Of a stretch of DNA of 64,000 bases, positions 7,372-14,529 are shown piece by piece (positions within the stretch are counted from its first letter, which is position 1; each line of letters begins with the position of its first letter). The DNA is from a virus. The translations under genes were made by a program, and so were the position numbers. The DNA lies in the IMG/VR virus record IMGVR_UViG_3300046115_000059, positions 1 through 64,000 of that record. One strand, given 5' to 3'. The notes beneath the pieces are model-generated. The model had not been told where the DNA came from, made no database searches, and worked only from the letters and a program-made list of their open reading frames with translations.

Positions 7372-9168
7372 ATGGTTATGACGTTTTCGGCTGGACGGTT
7401 CGTGGCAACACCGCAAGGTGAAACCGATCACGCGGCGATCAAAGCAGCTGGCGCGCGGTTCGTGTGGGACCGCGCCAGCCGCAGCTACTGGACGAAGTTT
7501 GCGGATCAGGCTGTGAAGCTGGCCGCATTCGCTGACGAAACCGCGGCTGCGAAGCTGGCCGGTGTGCCAACCGTGGAACAGCGCGCGACGGCAGTGGTCG
7601 CCAGCCGGGCGCAGGATGCGGCGATCGAAGTGCCTGCACCTGCGGGGCTCAACTATCTGCCGTTCCAGCGTGCGGGCATTGCCTACAGCGAGCAGCGCGC
7701 TGGCGTGCTGATGGCACCGGAGCAAGGGCTCGGGAAAACGATCATCGTGTGCGGCGTGATCAACCGCGACAGCTCAATCCGTCGCGCGCTGGTGCTGTGC
7801 CCAAAAACGCCGCGGGGCAACTGGCGCAACGAGCTGAATAAGTGGCTCACGCGCCGTATGACGATCGGCATCGGTGACGCGAAGCAGTTGCCGCTGCATG
7901 CCGATATCGTGATCATTCATTACGATGTGGCGCACCGCTACACTGAACAGCTGCATTCGGTAGCGTGGGATCTGATCGTGTGCGACGAAGCGCACCTGTT
8001 GAAAAATCCAAAGGCGCAGCGAACGATCCTCGTGTTCGGAAAAAAGGGCAAGCGCGCGAAGGGCAAGGCTGGCGCGGCTGGTTACGTGCCTGCCGTTCCG
8101 CCGATTCCATCGCTCGAAGCACGGCGCAAGATGCTGTTGACTGGCACGCCGATCGTCAATCGCCCGATGGAAGTGTTCCCGCTGCTGCACTACGTTGATT
8201 CAATCAGCTGGCCTGAATTTTTCCCGTTCGCCAAGCGCTACTGCGATGCCAACCGCACACCTTACGGCTGGGATTTCAAAGGCGCCAGCCACCTTGACGA
8301 ACTGCAGCAGAAAATGCGCGAGACGGTTATGTATCGCGTGCGCAAGTCAGAAGTGCTCACCGAGCTGCCGCGGAAGTTCCGGCAAGTGATCGAAATCCCT
8401 GCGAACGGCGCAGGCAAAATCGTGGCCGCCGAACGCGAAGCCTACGATCTCGTGAACACCGACGAGCACAAAGCACGGATCGCGCAGCTACAAGCCGCGG
8501 TGGAAGCGGCGAAGCTGACCGGCAACCGCGAAGAGTATGCCGCGGCGATCAACGCGCTGCAGCAGGGTGTGGCTGCACCGCTCGCGGAAATCAGCGCGAT
8601 GCGTAAGGCACTGGCGATCGAAAAGGCACCTTACGTGATCGAGCACGTGCAAACGGTGCTCGAAGATAACCCGACGCATAAGGTGGTCGTGTTCGCGTGG
8701 CATCACGAAATGGTGAACGCGCTGCGCGCAGCCTTCGCGGACAAGATGGTGGAAATCACCGGCCGCACCACAGGCGATCGCACGGACATCGTGCGCCGGT
8801 TTCAGGAAGATCCCAGCGTGCAGGTGTTCGTGGGCTCGATCACGGCAGCCGGAACGGCGATCACATTGACGGCGGCATCGCATGTCATTTTTGCGGAGCT
8901 GGATTGGGTGCCCGGTAATTTGTCGCAGGCCGAAGATCGCTGCCACCGAATCGGGCAGCACGATAACGTGCTGGTGCAGCATCTCGTGTTCGAAGGTTCA
9001 CTGGATGCCACGATGGTGCACATGATCATTGCTAAGCAAGCTGTGATCGATGCCGCGGTGGACGACGTGCATGTGGCACCAGCACCGGCACCAGTCGCAG
9101 CCGCTCGCGCGATCGCGCGGCCAGTCGTGACCGAACCGGAATGGAATGGAGTAGATGCACCGTGGTAG
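7372..9168 (+). CDS. SNF2/Rad54-family helicase
   Basis: GLGKT, DEAHLLKN, LLTGTPIVNRPMEVFPLL and QAEDRCHRIGQ motifs in canonical order. Confidence 0.9.
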   Translation: MVMTFSAGRFVATPQGETDHAAIKAAGARFVWDRASRSYWTKFADQAVKLAAFADETAAAKLAGVPTVEQRATAVVASRAQDAAIEVPAPAGLNYLPFQRAGIAYSEQRAGVLMAPEQGLGKTIIVCGVINRDSSIRRALVLCPKTPRGNWRNELNKWLTRRMTIGIGDAKQLPLHADIVIIHYDVAHRYTEQLHSVAWDLIVCDEAHLLKNPKAQRTILVFGKKGKRAKGKAGAAGYVPAVPPIPSLEARRKMLLTGTPIVNRPMEVFPLLHYVDSISWPEFFPFAKRYCDANRTPYGWDFKGASHLDELQQKMRETVMYRVRKSEVLTELPRKFRQVIEIPANGAGKIVAAEREAYDLVNTDEHKARIAQLQAAVEAAKLTGNREEYAAAINALQQGVAAPLAEISAMRKALAIEKAPYVIEHVQTVLEDNPTHKVVVFAWHHEMVNALRAAFADKMVEITGRTTGDRTDIVRRFQEDPSVQVFVGSITAAGTAITLTAASHVIFAELDWVPGNLSQAEDRCHRIGQHDNVLVQHLVFEGSLDATMVHMIIAKQAVIDAAVDDVHVAPAPAPVAAARAIARPVVTEPEWNGVDAPW

Positions 9169-9729: not shown

Positions 9730-9749
9730 CACACGTGCAGGAGAACCGA

Positions 9750-10964
9750 ATGGCAACAGCAGCAGAAAATAATCTCGGCGCGGCCGGTATGGTTGAAATG
9801 CCGGGCATGCTCAGTAGCGCGATCGGTGGCGACGATCTCATGCTCGATCCGTCGATCTATGTCGGAGTGGGCACGCTCGATCTGACGCCGGATCAGATTG
9901 CCATACTGATACAGGATCCGAACGACAGCGAAATCGATATCCTCGTGACCGGGGAAGTCTATATGAGCCACGTGCATGTGCGTGCGCGGCTGATTCAAGC
10001 GTTCAAGCCTGCGGGCTGGGCAATGCGGCCGCTGTCGCGTGAACGCACCGAAGAGGATAGCGATGGCAAAACGGTGTGCTTCGAGCAAATGTGGGGCATG
10101 TTCGTGCGCGGGATATTCGTGGCGGCTGCGTGGGGCTCGAACGAATGGCGCCGGGACAACGATCGCAGCAACCGAACCGACGCGCTCGAAGCCTGCAAGT
10201 CAAATGCGCTCACGCGCTGCGCGAAGGATCTCGGCATTGCCGCGCAGTGCTGGGACAAGCGCTGGGCGGATGCGTGGCGGGCTGGGAAGTGCTTCCGTGT
10301 GTGGCTGGAAAAGGGCGATCGGGGCGGCAGTAATAAGCCGGTGTGGCGCCGGATGGACGCGCCAGCATTCTGGAACGAAAAAGGGATCGCGGACGACAGC
10401 CCGAACAAAGAGAAATACAACCTGCCGAAGCAAACGCAAGCCGGGCGCCAGCCGCCACCGCAAGGCGCGCAGGCGCCTACAGGAACCACGAACGGCGGCT
10501 ACCGGCAACCACAGGCCGCGGCCAGCTCGCAGGCGCCTACGCAACGACAGGGCAACAATCCGGTGCCAGCCACCGCGAAGCCGGATTTTCAGCCACCGGG
10601 GCAGTCTGCACCGGCTACCGGCACGATCCGCGTAATCGAGCTGCTGCAAACCGCGGATCTGTTCCGCTCAATCGATGATGCCAAGCAGCCGGACGGCAAG
10701 GCACACGTGTATCGGTGTGTTACGGACAAGCGCACCTATGCATGGTTCAGTTACGAAAAAATGGAAAACGGGCAGCTGGGATCGGATGCGTTTACTACGG
10801 CGAAGGAACTCGAAAAATCCGTCGTGGTGATCGATTACGTCACGCAATCGCGCGGCGACGGGCAAGGGGTGAACAATAAACTGCGCGGTGTGCGTGCGCT
10901 CACGTTGGCCGAACAGGCGCATGTGAATCAGCAGACGGTAGCAAACGCGAAGCACGGCAAGTGA
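9750..10964 (+). CDS. Mgm101/Rad52-family single-strand annealing protein with PQ-rich linker and extra C-terminal domain
   Basis: AFKPAGWAMRPLS...EACKSNALTRCAKDLGIAAQCWD parallels the yeast Mgm101 core AFG.GGWGLVPRS...[25 protein letters not shown] GGAGA lies before ATG 9750. Confidence 0.75.
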   Translation: MATAAENNLGAAGMVEMPGMLSSAIGGDDLMLDPSIYVGVGTLDLTPDQIAILIQDPNDSEIDILVTGEVYMSHVHVRARLIQAFKPAGWAMRPLSRERTEEDSDGKTVCFEQMWGMFVRGIFVAAAWGSNEWRRDNDRSNRTDALEACKSNALTRCAKDLGIAAQCWDKRWADAWRAGKCFRVWLEKGDRGGSNKPVWRRMDAPAFWNEKGIADDSPNKEKYNLPKQTQAGRQPPPQGAQAPTGTTNGGYRQPQAAASSQAPTQRQGNNPVPATAKPDFQPPGQSAPATGTIRVIELLQTADLFRSIDDAKQPDGKAHVYRCVTDKRTYAWFSYEKMENGQLGSDAFTTAKELEKSVVVIDYVTQSRGDGQGVNNKLRGVRALTLAEQAHVNQQTVANAKHGK

Positions 10965-11617
10965 GCGATACCGTCACGATCGATACGCGAATGATCACGC
11001 TGGACGACCAGCACCGCTACTGGCATGGCGATCGGCAGTTGGTGGGCACGACGTTCGCGCTGGCGCAAGGTGGTTTCATTGACGAAAACACGCTGCGCTA
11101 TGCGAACGTCGCGCGCGGGCATGCAGTGCACGCGATCGCGGCACTCGAAATGATCGAGCAGCTCGATCACGCCACCGTGGATCCGCTGCTTGTGGGTTAT
11201 CACGAAGCCGTGATGCGCGTGCGCGATGATCTACGGCTCGAAACCTCGCGCGTTGAGCAAGTGGGTGGCATTCCTGAATTGGGCTACGGCAGCACGCTCG
11301 ACTGGCTCGGCACAATTCAACCTCGCGGCCGCTCGCGGCGCCGAACGCTGATCGATTGGAAAACCTACGCCTACACACACTGGCACCGGCTGCAGGTGGG
11401 TGGCGCATATCTACCGGTCGCACACAAATGCTACGACGACAGCGAACCGATCGACACGCTCGTGGTGCAGCTCGAAGCCACGGGCGAATACAAGCTGTTT
11501 CCATTCGTGCCGGATCCCAGCGAACGCATGGTGTTTCTGGGTGCAGTGTCCGGCACGCGCTGGCGCATGAAATACGGAAGGGGTGGACAGCTCTATGGCC
11601 GAAGCAGTAGCAACTGA
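10961..11617 (+). CDS. Putative PD-(D/E)XK (RecB/Cas4-like) exonuclease, partner of the annealing protein
   Basis: GHAVHAIAA, STLDWLG and TLIDWKT motifs. GTGA overlap with the annealing-protein gene. Confidence 0.55.
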   Translation: MSDTVTIDTRMITLDDQHRYWHGDRQLVGTTFALAQGGFIDENTLRYANVARGHAVHAIAALEMIEQLDHATVDPLLVGYHEAVMRVRDDLRLETSRVEQVGGIPELGYGSTLDWLGTIQPRGRSRRRTLIDWKTYAYTHWHRLQVGGAYLPVAHKCYDDSEPIDTLVVQLEATGEYKLFPFVPDPSERMVFLGAVSGTRWRMKYGRGGQLYGRSSSN

Positions 11618-12401
11618 ATCGCTGGTAGCGATCGCAGCCGACGCGGCGACGAAGCCGGGCGACGAAGTCAAAGTGGTGATGGTGTCGCAGGAAATTGCGC
11701 AGCTCGCGCAGCAGGTGCAGGCGCTGCCCGCGATCATCGATACACCGGAACAATTTCAATTCGTGGCTGAACAGCGTGAAGTGTCGCGCGCGTTCGTCTC
11801 GAAAACAGAATCGTTTTTTGAGAAGTCGCGCAAGGCCACCTATGACGCGTGGCAAAGCGTGCTAGGTGATATCGGCACGTTGAAGCAGCCGCATTTGGAT
11901 CGTATCGATCAGGCCGATCGGCTACTGAAAGCGTTTCACCAGCGTGAACGCGATCGCGTGGCTCGACAGGAACGCGAAGAGCAAGCGCTGCTCGATATGG
12001 CTGGTGTGCCGGAAGAGGAACAGATCATCATGCCGCAACCGTCGCGGGCACAATCCGTGATGGCTGCGGCGCCGGTCAGCCTGCACGATAAGCCGGAAGT
12101 GCAGGGTATTGATCTGGCGCAGCTCGTGATCGGCATTGCGCGGCCAGCGATTTATATCGAACTGGCTGCGGTGATCGAGCAGCTGGCGCAGTCGCAGAAA
12201 GGTGTCAGCCGGGCCGCATGGTTAGCCGTGCGCGATTGGCTGCGCAAGGAATGCAACGAGCTGCCGCGCGTGCCGGTGCAAGTGGTCAGCGCGAATGCTG
12301 GGTTTATCCGCACGCAAGTATCACGATCGAAAATGCTGCTCAATTGGCCGGGCGTGAAAGTCGGCACTGGCAGTGGTGTACGCGCGAAGCCGAAACGCTA
12401 G
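11595..12401 (+). CDS. Hypothetical coiled-coil protein of the recombination module
   Basis: ATG 11595 after GGAAGGGG. Helical, charged sequence. Confidence 0.55.
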   Translation: MAEAVATESLVAIAADAATKPGDEVKVVMVSQEIAQLAQQVQALPAIIDTPEQFQFVAEQREVSRAFVSKTESFFEKSRKATYDAWQSVLGDIGTLKQPHLDRIDQADRLLKAFHQRERDRVARQEREEQALLDMAGVPEEEQIIMPQPSRAQSVMAAAPVSLHDKPEVQGIDLAQLVIGIARPAIYIELAAVIEQLAQSQKGVSRAAWLAVRDWLRKECNELPRVPVQVVSANAGFIRTQVSRSKMLLNWPGVKVGTGSGVRAKPKR

Positions 12402-12899
12402 ATTTTGTATGTTGATCTATTTAGTGTGCGGAGTCATACTCCGCGCCTAGAAACGAAAGGCCGCCACCGCGGGAAACGGTAGCGGCCAGATTCGACCGTG
12501 CTGGTAATGACAGCGACGGGCGGTTTCAGCCGTCAATCCTACCATTCCAGCACTCTAAAAATCTAGGTTTCTCAGCCGTGTGTGCAGGGGCTAACTGTAA
12601 CCAGCGGGCATACGGATGAGTTTCCCACAGCGAGCAATCCGGATGGGGCTAATAGCTCGCGCATGCGCCAGTGGCGAAACCACGGGGGCGCCTAGCTAGG
12701 GTTGGATTGGCCGACTCATAAAATTTCCCGTGGAATGCTGGCGCCGTATCGACCAGCATCCGACGATGACGGGCGGGCACCGTGGGGATATCCCTCGAAT
12801 GGCTGCAACGGTTATCGTGTTCGGGTATCCGCCGCTCTAGGGAGTGGCTTGCCCGAACGACTCAGGTGCGGCGCAGCCGTAAGGATTGGAGCTGGGGCA
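12402..12899 (+). ncRNA. Candidate large structured RNA, long structured leader or origin region (unclassified)
   Basis: 498 bp between a stop and the next SD-led ATG. No ORF of 60 aa or more on either strand across 12416-12701. At least six stable hairpins are present; coordinates are in the findings. Confidence 0.4.
12412..12440 (+). promoter_or_regulatory. Candidate promoter TTGATC-N17-CATACT at the start of the ORF-free region
   Basis: TTGATC 12412-12417, CATACT 12435-12440. The -10 resembles the cassette TATACT. Confidence 0.3.
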
Positions 12900-13433
12900 A
12901 TGAGGCTACCGAAAACAGTGTTGGATGCAGTGCGAAAATATAAAGCACTGATCAATGGTCCGGATCCGGACAATCTTTTTCAGAAAGATCCGGGCGAAGA
13001 GGAGATCGCGGAAATTGTTGGCGCCAAAATGAGCGTCGCGGATGCGGTGCTCGCGTGGATCGATGTGCATCCGATCGCGCCAAAACCGGCAAAGGTGGCC
13101 GCGTTGAAAGTTGCAGATCCATCGGTGTCGATCGTGATGAAGCGCTACGAATCGCTATGGCGCGCGAAGCACGGGAATGAACCGTTACCGCCGCAGAATT
13201 GGCCGATGATCGGTCGGCAGACGAAAGCGCTGCTGCTGAACTACGGCGAGCAGCGCGTGCTGCAGATGCTGAAAATCTATGTCGTGGAAGGCGATCTATT
13301 CTGGGCGAAGCAGGGATTTCCGTGGAGCGGTTTCTATAGCAGCGTGCCACGGCTGGCACTCGCCACACGCGGGCCGCTCGCGCAGGGCTCGGCAGCCGAT
13401 CGCGTCGCAGCTAAACTAGTCGGGGGTGCGTAA
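12900..13433 (+). CDS. Hypothetical protein (possible replication-module protein)
   Basis: ATG 12900 eight nt after GGAG (12888-12891). The track TTG start at 12702 is rejected. Confidence 0.6.
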   Translation: MRLPKTVLDAVRKYKALINGPDPDNLFQKDPGEEEIAEIVGAKMSVADAVLAWIDVHPIAPKPAKVAALKVADPSVSIVMKRYESLWRAKHGNEPLPPQNWPMIGRQTKALLLNYGEQRVLQMLKIYVVEGDLFWAKQGFPWSGFYSSVPRLALATRGPLAQGSAADRVAAKLVGGA

Positions 13434-13729
13434 TGTATAGCACACGGGAAGATCGGGAACAGGCCGCAAAGCTGAGTGAATCGCAGCAGCGCAAGCTGAA
13501 CGAACGGCGGGCAATTTTCTATGCAGGCTGGGACGGTCGCAGCGTATCCGTCGTGAAAGCGATGCTGCCGCTCGTGGTCGTGAATGCCATGCTTGGCGCA
13601 TTCCCACACGAGCAGCCGAGCCCGATCAGCGGTGGCAGTTACGAACTCGCGCGCGAGGAAGCCTTTCAGCGATTCGAACGCAAGCGAATCGAAGCGGAAA
13701 CCGCGGTGCTGCGGCAGGTGGCGCCATGA
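13433..13729 (+). CDS. Hypothetical protein
   Basis: 98-aa ORF with TAATG overlap. Confidence 0.5.
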   Translation: MYSTREDREQAAKLSESQQRKLNERRAIFYAGWDGRSVSVVKAMLPLVVVNAMLGAFPHEQPSPISGGSYELAREEAFQRFERKRIEAETAVLRQVAP

Positions 13730-14529
13730 CGCGCGCCGAAGCGGCCGAACTGGTGAAGGAATTCGATCGTGTGGCGCGGTCCGGCGTGCTGAAACTCACG
13801 ACGCAGCCGAACGAAGATTTTTGGACGCTCTATATCAGCGCGCTGGCCGATTACGATCTGATCGTCGCGCGCGCGGCAATGCAGCGTTATATTCGCACCG
13901 CTGGCATGGTGTTTTTCCCGACACCGGGGCAACTGATCGAACTGGTGGAAGGCGCAGGCGACGATCGTGGTCTGCAAGCGTGGCTGATATTCAACGAAGC
14001 TATTCACCTGATCGGCAATTTCAAGTCGCTGATCGTAGAGGATGCTGCGCTCGGGCGCGCGCTCGCGCAGGTGTTCGGCGGTTGGATCGATGCGTGTGAC
14101 ACGCGGGCCATAACCGAAGAGCCGACATGGCAGGCGCGAAAAAAGGAATTCGTGTCGAGCTACCGGTTTCACAGCATGGCCGCACCGTGCGAAGCGGATC
14201 CGATCTGGTTCGACGGTTTCTGTGTGCAGCAGAATCGTGAGAACCTCGGGCGCTGGGATTGGCACCTGCAACAGCTGATCGAGTATGCCGGGGTGATCAC
14301 GCGCAGTTTCGAACTGCAGGAGCGGCGCGTGGAACTGGATGGCAAAACACTGGCGCGGCTGCTGCCACTGCGCGACATCCTCGCATTGCCGCAGCCGATG
14401 CGCACGTCGGTGGCTGCGCTGCCACCGTCTGATCCGGTTGAAGTGTTCACGCCGGAACAGCGTGCGAAAGCGCTGGCGCACCTGCACTCTGAATTTCAGC
14501 GCGTGCTGCAGCAACGGGGCATGCTGTGA
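13726..14529 (+). CDS. Hypothetical protein (possible replication-associated)
   Basis: 267-aa ORF with ATGA overlap, positioned before RusA. Confidence 0.55.
   Translation: MTRAEAAELVKEFDRVARSGVLKLTTQPNEDFWTLYISALADYDLIVARAAMQRYIRTAGMVFFPTPGQLIELVEGAGDDRGLQAWLIFNEAIHLIGNFKSLIVEDAALGRALAQVFGGWIDACDTRAITEEPTWQARKKEFVSSYRFHSMAAPCEADPIWFDGFCVQQNRENLGRWDWHLQQLIEYAGVITRSFELQERRVELDGKTLARLLPLRDILALPQPMRTSVAALPPSDPVEVFTPEQRAKALAHLHSEFQRVLQQRGML

Follow-up and report, generated by a model that had tools for sequence, protein, structure and literature searches.

A conserved hairpin and nine-base motif ahead of an initiator-like gene in an uncultured phage as a candidate cis-antisense RNA unit

Cis-antisense RNAs encoded beside phage replication genes are a known kind of regulator, with counterparts on plasmids. 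Well-known plasmid countertranscripts include RNA I, which is directed against RNA II of ColE1; CopA, directed against the repA leader of R1; and Inc RNA, directed against the repZ leader of IncI plasmids. Phage P22 encodes sar, a small antisense RNA whose promoter lies between two co-directional genes and which covers the ribosome-binding site of ant. In phage lambda, the 77-nucleotide (nt) oop RNA is transcribed from the promoter pO (PMC5869508, PMC3985674). This work concerns an intergenic spacer at positions 12402 to 12899 of IMG/VR record IMGVR_UViG_3300046115_000059, of which positions 1 to 64,000 were analyzed (referred to here as the window); the window is a phage genome with almost all of its genes on the plus strand. 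The spacer is a real non-coding control region ahead of a phage replication gene. On sequence grounds, we tentatively favor the reading that its conserved core is an ~80-nt cis-antisense RNA gene of the lambda oop or plasmid countertranscript type, situated in the control region of an initiator-like operon. Such an RNA would belong to a new family, absent from Rfam.

The locus resembles lambda oop in several respects. As predicted here, the transcript would be short and would run against the early genes, between two rightward genes and beside a replication initiator gene. The terminator would adjoin the upstream gene at that gene's 3' end and the promoter would adjoin the downstream gene, an arrangement that is clearest in one relative (contig L019, described below), and its predicted size of ~65 to 90 nt is similar. 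The two systems differ in that they share no sequence similarity, the present unit has no Rfam match, the hosts and phage lineages are unrelated, and the transcript here is only a predicted one. In addition, the predicted RNA would act on an intercistronic or leader region, not on the 3' end of a cII-like gene. With P22 sar, the unit shares an intercistronic promoter and opposite transcription; unlike sar, the RNA predicted here heads away from the downstream start codon, which it would leave uncovered. The likeness to plasmid countertranscripts depends on a weak sense promoter-like site at 12412 to 12440. If that site is real, the antisense RNA would complement the first ~80 nt of a ~450-nt structured leader into a replication gene, much as ColE1 RNA I ends near the start of RNA II, and a 5' box that may pair at long range with the ribosome-binding region would recall the pseudoknot control of IncI and IncB plasmids. 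Unlike those systems, however, the locus belongs to a phage and not to a plasmid, the leader structure is not conserved, and no kissing-loop motif was identified.

Approximately 100 nt (12444 to 12544) constitutes the sole part of the spacer that is common to distant relatives, and two elements within it are conserved. The first is a GC hairpin (GGCCGCCACCG/CGGTAGCGGCC, 12459 to 12487), which is followed after 36 to 54 variable nt by the second, an invariant 9-mer (ATCCTACCA, 12536 to 12544) that occurs as a single copy in the window. The 9-mer is found exactly, on the gene strand, in three far more distant contigs of phages with an Mgm101-like gene (L003, L005, and L006). In these contigs, the unit occupies the homologous place, the proteins are only 21 to 40% identical to those of the window, and the hairpin takes the form GGCCG-N17-20-CGGCC, 36 to 54 nt upstream of the 9-mer. 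The outer five pairs of the hairpin are constant, and the inner six (stem levels 6 to 11) differ among phages yet remain paired; RNAalifold registers double changes at 9 of 12 hairpin pairs. The stretch between the hairpin and the 9-mer could not be aligned among members. Position relative to the preceding gene is also constrained, as the hairpin begins 7 to 70 nt after a stop codon in every member. In the window and L006, where the preceding gene belongs to the same family (referred to here as w272), the unit starts ~45 to 70 nt after the stop and the 9-mer lies 135 and 134 nt past it, respectively. The chance of encountering the exact 9-mer within ~150 nt is roughly 6e-4 per locus.

Four members (the window, L003, L005, and L006) are independent of the pattern, while two further contigs, L019 and L022, came from a search for the pattern itself: a scan of IMG/VR for the hairpin plus the 9-mer that returned 40 matches. 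In L019, 95 nt separate a stop codon from the start of an Mgm101-like gene, and the unit takes up all of them; we accept this contig as a probable member on its Mgm101 context alone. L022 is no more than a possible member; there, two convergent genes flank the unit, with a Phage_rep_O gene and a DnaB gene ~480 nt away. This contig also carries, at L022:6420-6500, a TTGCAAGTTGCAA repeat and a plus-strand TGGTAGTCT extended -10-like box, 33 nt ahead of the Phage_rep_O gene and then DnaB; a ribbon-helix-helix-like gene on the opposite strand separates this region from the hairpin and 9-mer. Pattern scans of metagenomes and genomes gave at least 240 loci; among the matches listed, none had a related protein and none scored above 28 bits, and these are treated as probable chance matches. 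A search with a model of the unit found no further copy in the window, nor in other Mgm101 and DUF87 loci, and a separate DUF87-guided scan retrieved seven loci, none containing the unit.

The conserved unit reads better on the minus strand, where it resembles a promoter followed by a terminator. The order and orientation of the elements, identical in the window, L003, L005, L006, and L019, are those that a promoter, a transcribed body, and a terminator would have. We arrived at this reading because the hairpin varies yet pairs, the intervening stretch is free to change, and the 9-mer stays constant. Read on the minus strand, the 9-mer is TGGTAGGAT, a putative extended -10 that fits the consensus TGnTAnnnT (TG at -15/-14, T at -12, A at -11, and T at -7) in all members. 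It is the only TGNTANNNT in the gap of the window and the sole TAGGAT-type example in all 64 kb. The extended -10 motif is likewise unique in the L003 and L005 gaps and is one of two in the L006 stretch scanned. A TTGC -35-like box stands 18 nt upstream on the minus strand in L003 and L005. These nine bases are identical to the TGG motif plus TAGGAT -10 hexamer of ermEp1 from Saccharopolyspora erythraea, a classic strong constitutive promoter used throughout Streptomyces genetics (PMC12809767; ermE* primer sequences in PMC9262613). Only the nine bases match, and the -35 region and surroundings differ. On the strength of this identity, an actinobacterial principal sigma factor may recognize the motif. 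The phage portal shares 27 to 29% identity with its counterparts in, among others, Arthrobacter, Mycobacterium, and Gordonia phages; that its nearest cultured relatives include many actinobacteriophages fits a promoter of actinobacterial type.

At the other end of the unit, the hairpin would act as the intrinsic terminator at which the antisense RNA ends. A U-rich tail (TTTCGTTTCT, 12449 to 12458) directly follows it on the minus strand, and the terminator scanner calls the antisense strand in the window and L019; no intrinsic terminator was found on the sense strand of any member. The antisense tails (TTTCGTTTCT in the window, GTTTCTATGT in L003, TTCTTACGTC in L005, and TTGTGTTTCT in L019) contain 5 to 7 T in 10 nt, versus only 0 to 3 T on the gene strand. 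The single internal mismatch of the stem in the window and L005, C.A when read on the sense strand, becomes a G.U pair on the antisense strand. With a start placed 7 nt after the -10 and an end at the U tail, the predicted antisense RNA would be ~81 nt long (12449 to 12529, minus strand). Its minimum free energy (MFE) is -39.2 kcal/mol (z = -5.65), and the MFE structure accounts for 64% of the ensemble. Equivalent predicted units in relatives measure 63 to 88 nt. A nested hairpin at 12498 to 12553 overlaps both features: the 9-mer lies in its 3' side, and the body of the predicted RNA would correspond to its 5' part.

Several observations weigh against this interpretation. There are only five independent members, and a model built without L019 and L022 scores these two at 17 and 23 bits, against 10 to 23.5 bits for chance hits with strong hairpins. 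The window has no -35, and the scanner calls no terminator in L003, L005, or L006 (tails of 6, 5, and 2 to 3 T in 10 nt, that of L006 being poor). Summed over six units, the folding energies are equal at -202.8 kcal/mol for either strand, which renders the choice of strand by energy uninformative. Nine fully invariant bases exceed what a -10 normally needs, and a sequence-specific protein or RNA contact is also possible. Finally, L006 has a good sense promoter just upstream, and the hairpin could be the 5' end of a sense leader. Other identities were tried and dropped: a leader peptide for the 9-mer (the frames differ between L019 and L006), a tRNA-like 3' end or attP core (the context is not tRNA-like and no integrase is encoded nearby), and a DnaA box for the 9-mer (the motif does not fit TTATCCACA).

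In the proposed explanation, the spacer would be the control region of an operon opened by the initiator-like gene (12900 to 13433), and its core (~12449 to 12544) would be a small minus-strand transcription unit. This unit would comprise the extended -10 TGGTAGGAT (the complement of 12536 to 12544), a variable body of ~45 nt, and the terminator (12487 to 12459, read in that direction, plus UUUCGUUUCU). Its ~80-nt product would be perfectly complementary to any plus-strand RNA crossing the region, whether read-through from the recombination operon or a leader begun at the weak promoter at 12412 to 12440. If the sense sites are active, the sense transcript would start ~12 nt ahead of the hairpin, and its first ~80 nt would have the antisense RNA as their complement. 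Lambda oop, P22 sar, and plasmid countertranscripts suggest by analogy that such pairing would make the sense message less well expressed or less stable and would thereby tune the replication genes. We infer the transcription, strand, RNA ends, and effect of the unit; what was found are promoter-like and terminator-like signals and their conservation. A more ambitious version, which we hold to be possible but doubtful, is that the unit represents a new family of phage cis-antisense small RNAs across divergent uncultured Mgm101-type phages, positioned at the boundary between recombination and replication operons and acting as a countertranscript on a long leader that sets the level of a new type of initiator; the promoter would then be invariant by virtue of also being a pairing box on the sense strand. 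Such an arrangement would mean plasmid-style antisense control of replication in a lytic-module context.

The non-coding status of the spacer agrees with an earlier reading of the locus made from the sequence alone (the sequence-only reading). The upstream open reading frame (ORF) stops at TAG 12399-12401, and the next called gene, as that reading had it, begins at ATG 12900 behind a GGAG Shine-Dalgarno sequence at 12889 to 12892 (JGI call, 177 amino acids [aa]). No ORF of at least 60 aa is present across 12416 to 12701. From TTG 12702 onward, the downstream frame is already open, and the strictly ORF-free stretch is therefore 300 nt rather than the 498 bp first described. The description of the spacer as the largest gap holds within the 18 kb that have public gene calls. 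Codon-position GC periodicity falls from ~0.3 in both flanking genes to 0.04 to 0.12 over 12300 to 12900, and six-frame translations of the spacer matched zero Pfam domains, even at E = 10. A second assembly (Logan SRR35441057, contig L001) contains an identical copy of the spacer. No tRNA or tmRNA genes, no tandem repeats, and no intron model matches were found in the spacer, nor does its sequence recur elsewhere in the window; with regard to group I or II introns, the upstream gene ends where its homologues end, 13 to 14 aa past WPGV.

The upstream gene, the spacer, and the downstream gene share one frame, in which the only stops between the two genes are four TAG codons (12399 to 12701). 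CTAG is ~5-fold depleted across the window, and 6 of its 42 CTAG tetramers cluster at 12398 to 12840. We regard the TAG-only stops and the local CTAG excess as unexplained curiosities. A protein-coding gene, pseudogene, or recoded gene was considered on account of this shared frame and dropped, as the spacer lacks codon periodicity and homology, and its translation is implausible. A more specific version is that the spacer is the decayed N-terminal, DNA-binding HTH_36 half of the initiator, which is intact at this position in two relatives, L002 and L004. The positions match, the 498-nt gap together with the 177-aa gene approximates the size of the 306-aa HTH_36 protein of L004, and the gap is in frame with both neighbors, broken only by the TAG codons. 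Even so, decay seems very improbable to us: neither tblastn nor Pfam detected residual similarity in any frame, codon periodicity is absent, and a non-coding unit is conserved in L003, L005, and L006, unlike what a decaying pseudogene would show. An intact gene here in homologous phages had been named in advance as evidence against a non-coding element; L002 does carry the HTH_36 half of an initiator gene, but no trace of it is seen in the window.

The spacer as a whole folds stably. The MFE of the 498 nt is -222 kcal/mol on the plus strand (z = -5.2) and -192 kcal/mol on the minus strand (z = -3.6); after regression on GC content, the two strands rank 2nd and 39th, respectively, among 636 overlapping 498-nt windows. 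All seven helices proposed from the sequence are present at the coordinates given for them, with MFE values of -2.5 to -26 kcal/mol. The folding signal is real, yet the term "hairpin-dense" overstates it. When hairpins are counted as perfect stems of at least 6 bp with loops of 3 to 12 nt, the spacer contains 2 versus a window mean of 1.6, and 304 of the 636 windows have at least as many. At the scale of 200 nt, only 12402 to 12601 is an outlier within the spacer, on both strands (z magnitude 4.1 / 5.2); 12602 to 12801 is ordinary (z = -0.7), 12545 to 12899 as a whole has a z-score of -2.5, and several coding windows reach -4 to -5.4. Outside the spacer, 12002 to 12201, in the 3' part of the upstream gene, has an unusually stable fold on the plus strand only (z of -4.4 versus -1.3), and the window 12002 to 12499 ties with the spacer as the best-folding 498-nt window.

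Ordinary hairpin density and similarly stable coding windows are what one would expect of a plain operon boundary. In that case, a U-tract-poor or bidirectional terminator would end the recombination operon, the promoters of the next operon would follow, the 9-mer would be retained for a reason unrelated to RNA, and the extra stability would be functionless. The placement of the hairpin shortly after a stop codon in every member suits such a boundary, and terminators without a U tract are common in high-GC bacteria. An invariant 9-mer on a fixed side and at a fixed distance in five diverged phages is left unexplained, as is its identity to a known extended -10 on the opposite strand, and we consider a boundary of this kind rather unlikely to be the full account.

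One folded plus-strand RNA of ~450 to 500 nt, as the sequence-only reading had proposed, is not borne out by the relatives. Only ~100 nt is conserved, the signal lies mainly in the first 200 nt, and the conserved unit reads better on the opposite strand. Stability is inconsistent among homologous gaps: that of L003 folds well (z = -3.9), as does the window, whereas that of L005 is no better than shuffles (z = -0.8). Compensatory changes, which had been anticipated for the region, were found in the 11-bp hairpin of the unit, the sole covarying element among the homologues. In a comparison of L003 with L005, both partners differ in 12 of 63 predicted pairs; the predicted long-range helices, however, show no change at all and hence no covariation, and the window does not align with this pair. 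The Rfam 15 covariance models gave 0 matches over the whole window at gathering thresholds, consistent with the initial failure to assign the region to a known family; a permissive search of 12200 to 13100 gave only two matches (E of 1.4 and 2.4), far under threshold. The families covered, none of which was matched, included riboswitches, leaders, group I and II introns, large RNAs of the GOLLD/ROOL/HEARO type, and phage small RNAs. Of the RNA readings, a single folded RNA over all 498 nt has the weakest support.

Signals on the sense strand nevertheless bear on how the remainder of the spacer is understood. The promoter-like site TTGATC-N17-CATACT does exist at 12412 to 12440 (CATACT at 12435 to 12440), 18 nt ahead of the conserved hairpin, but it has only 8/12 matches and falls under the scanner threshold. 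Its counterpart in L006, TTGACT-16-TATGAT, has 10/12 and is called by the scanner; L003 and L005 have -10-like boxes (TATGAT and TACAGT), positioned 18 to 20 nt ahead of the hairpin as in L006. A 9-bp stem with a triloop at 12426 to 12446 is specific to the window and was not seen in relatives. Downstream of the unit, 12545 to 12899 contains hairpins at 12665 to 12691 (followed by CTAG) and 12819 to 12858. L003 and L005 likewise have a hairpin with CTAGG after it (12665 to 12699 in the window). CAATCC/GGATTG copies at 12534, 12635, 12704, and 12883 (4 observed versus 0.35 expected) include one that overlaps the invariant 9-mer and another that overlaps the bases immediately preceding the ribosome-binding site. 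In L003 and L005, similar GCAATCC boxes adjoin the 9-mer, and, as in the window, inverted GGATTG-type boxes lie nearer the ribosome-binding site. L003 and L005 share long identical blocks across the whole gap; outside the unit, the gap of the window has no convincing alignment to either. We take these remaining ~350 nt to be leader, operator, or origin sequence, conserved only within sub-lineages and lineage specific in content.

Several of these features would suit a sense-strand explanation. Starting from a promoter at ~12412 to 12440, a structured leader or non-coding RNA of ~450 nt would begin with the conserved hairpin (the complement of the antisense form at 12459 to 12487 would be the 5' hairpin of any sense leader) and would carry AUCCUACCA as a single-stranded or long-range pairing motif, controlling translation of the initiator-like protein or priming replication like ColE1 RNA II. 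The higher folding rank of the plus strand, the stable L003 gap, the sense promoter called in L006 with its counterpart boxes in L003 and L005, and the identical blocks shared by L003 and L005 all lend it weight. Moreover, in the window and L005, CAAUCC-type boxes by the 9-mer are able to base-pair with GGAUUG-type boxes close to the ribosome-binding site; for L003 and L005, the predicted folds include an invariant long-range helix that matches this pairing. Against these stand the poor -10 (CATACT) of the window, the lack of any Rfam match, the shuffle-like L005 gap, the modest z-scores downstream of the unit, the failure of the window to align there, and long-range helices without covariation. 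In L019, furthermore, the unit is alone in a 95-nt space that has no room for a long leader. We judge it unlikely that a sense leader accounts for the unit by itself; a regulatory leader for the replication genes, one of the functions first suggested for the region, survives as part of the favored antisense explanation.

A replication origin had also been suggested and is possible for 12545 to 12899. The corresponding DNA-level explanation holds that the spacer, this part especially, is an origin or operator bound by the initiator-like protein, with the 9-mer as a protein site and the hairpin as the terminator of the upstream operon. The spacer lies directly ahead of the initiator-like gene, and L002 has four AACCGTCA iterons in the corresponding position, immediately ahead of its segment that is homologous to the 177-aa gene. 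Two to three tandem repeats of 10 to 11 nt, candidate iterons or operators, are found ~100 nt upstream of the initiator-like gene at L003:18400-18433 (GTAC.TACCG) and L005:17466-17487 (GTACTCCAAAC, twice). The strict invariance of the 9-mer suits a protein site, and the spacer has three short AT-rich patches in addition to its excess of CAATCC boxes. The spacer of the window, by contrast, is devoid of iterons, whether as tandem or multicopy direct repeats; it shows no dip under 52% GC (the lowest 200-nt value is 52.5%) and no GC-skew turn, and its 9-mer occurs once only. The constrained spacing and orientation of the hairpin and 9-mer, and the position of the unit before a recombinase gene in L019, would also go unexplained. 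As a complete account of the locus, binding at the DNA level appears improbable. Both the sense leader and the origin or operator may well coexist with the antisense unit. A pac site, the remaining early suggestion, is unlikely because the packaging genes are ~20 kb away.

The genes around the spacer place it within the recombination and replication module, as initially proposed. Upstream lie a ParB-like gene, an SNF2 helicase gene (7372 to 9168), a gene for an Mgm101/Rad52-like annealing protein (9735 to 10964; Pfam PF06420, E of 2e-28), and two unannotated genes. The second of these, of the w272 family, encodes 272 aa (11583 to 12401, plus strand); the family ends in a ..WPGV.. motif. Downstream are three genes, the last of them DUF6475-like (13726 to 14529), then RusA and HNH genes and, later, a Mu-like portal gene and a protease gene. 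The Mgm101/Rad52-like family is very rare, with 11 clusters in a collection of 5.8 billion proteins, 0 of 50,697 deposited phage genomes, and a best identity of 40%.

The gene directly downstream of the spacer (12900 to 13433, plus strand, 177 aa) is an orphan apart from residues 93 to 155. These residues match the C-terminal part of the initiator-like gene of L002 (41% over 63 aa, E of 6e-12), and the C-terminal region is weakly similar to a 192-aa protein of L005 (22%, E of 0.001). Because of the L002 match, and because L002 and L004 carry HTH_36 domains at this position, we conclude from similarity and synteny that the downstream gene is related to the C-terminal part of a replication-initiator-like protein. 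L002, the closest relative, is syntenic: its 211-, 252-, and 291-aa genes correspond to the 218-, 272-, and 267-aa genes of the window at 38%, 27%, and 39% identity. Between its 252- and 291-aa genes are an HTH_36 ORF, the four direct AACCGTCA repeats, and a segment without a gene call, in a different frame, that matches residues 93 to 155. The spacer thereby sits where L002 has the DNA-binding half of the initiator and its iterons. The initiator-like gene of L002 (L002:12540-13330) extends over three frames (HTH_36 ORF, middle, and C-terminal), with the four repeats at 12918 to 12966. This layout reflects either assembly indel errors or a real split gene with an internal iteron origin; lambda O is a gene with an internal iteron origin. 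L004 has the 306-aa HTH_36 protein at the position of the spacer, followed by an IstB-like loader. In L005, a 525-nt gap with the unit precedes genes of 192 aa, 88 aa, and a DUF6475-like protein, mirroring the gap, 177-, 98-, and 267-aa order of the window; in L003, the gap that holds the unit measures 546 nt, and the gene after it is truncated where the contig ends.

Beyond these contigs, relatives are scarce. Among 5.8 billion sequences, both flanking proteins retrieved only themselves (the proteins of the source contig), as did the 177-aa protein in a full HMMER search of 1.84 billion representatives. BLAST of the spacer region against INPHARED phages and PLSDB plasmids gave no match, and no close cultured phage was found. 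Protein-guided scans of IMG/VR with three neighboring proteins retrieved nothing, the source contig included, and the same was true of scans of IMG/VR, JGI metagenomes, and GTDB genomes with a DUF6475-like alignment. As the searches of the metagenome collections miss the JGI contig of the window itself, an absence of matches there does not equate to absence from JGI data.

The spacer is not the large novel ribozyme-like RNA that a first reading suggested. For genome scanning in general, it carries a caution: most of a strong folding score for a whole region was contributed by a single small unit whose better reading is on the opposite strand. If that unit is transcribed as predicted, it would define a new family of phage antisense RNAs whose signature is a GC hairpin, 36 to 54 nt, and TGGTAGGAT on the transcribed strand, carried by a lineage that has no cultured member and consists mostly of orphan genes. 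The exact match to an actinobacterial promoter element would give the first hint as to the host of this lineage. If true, the unit would mark both an operon boundary and a regulatory node beside a previously unrecognized replication initiator.

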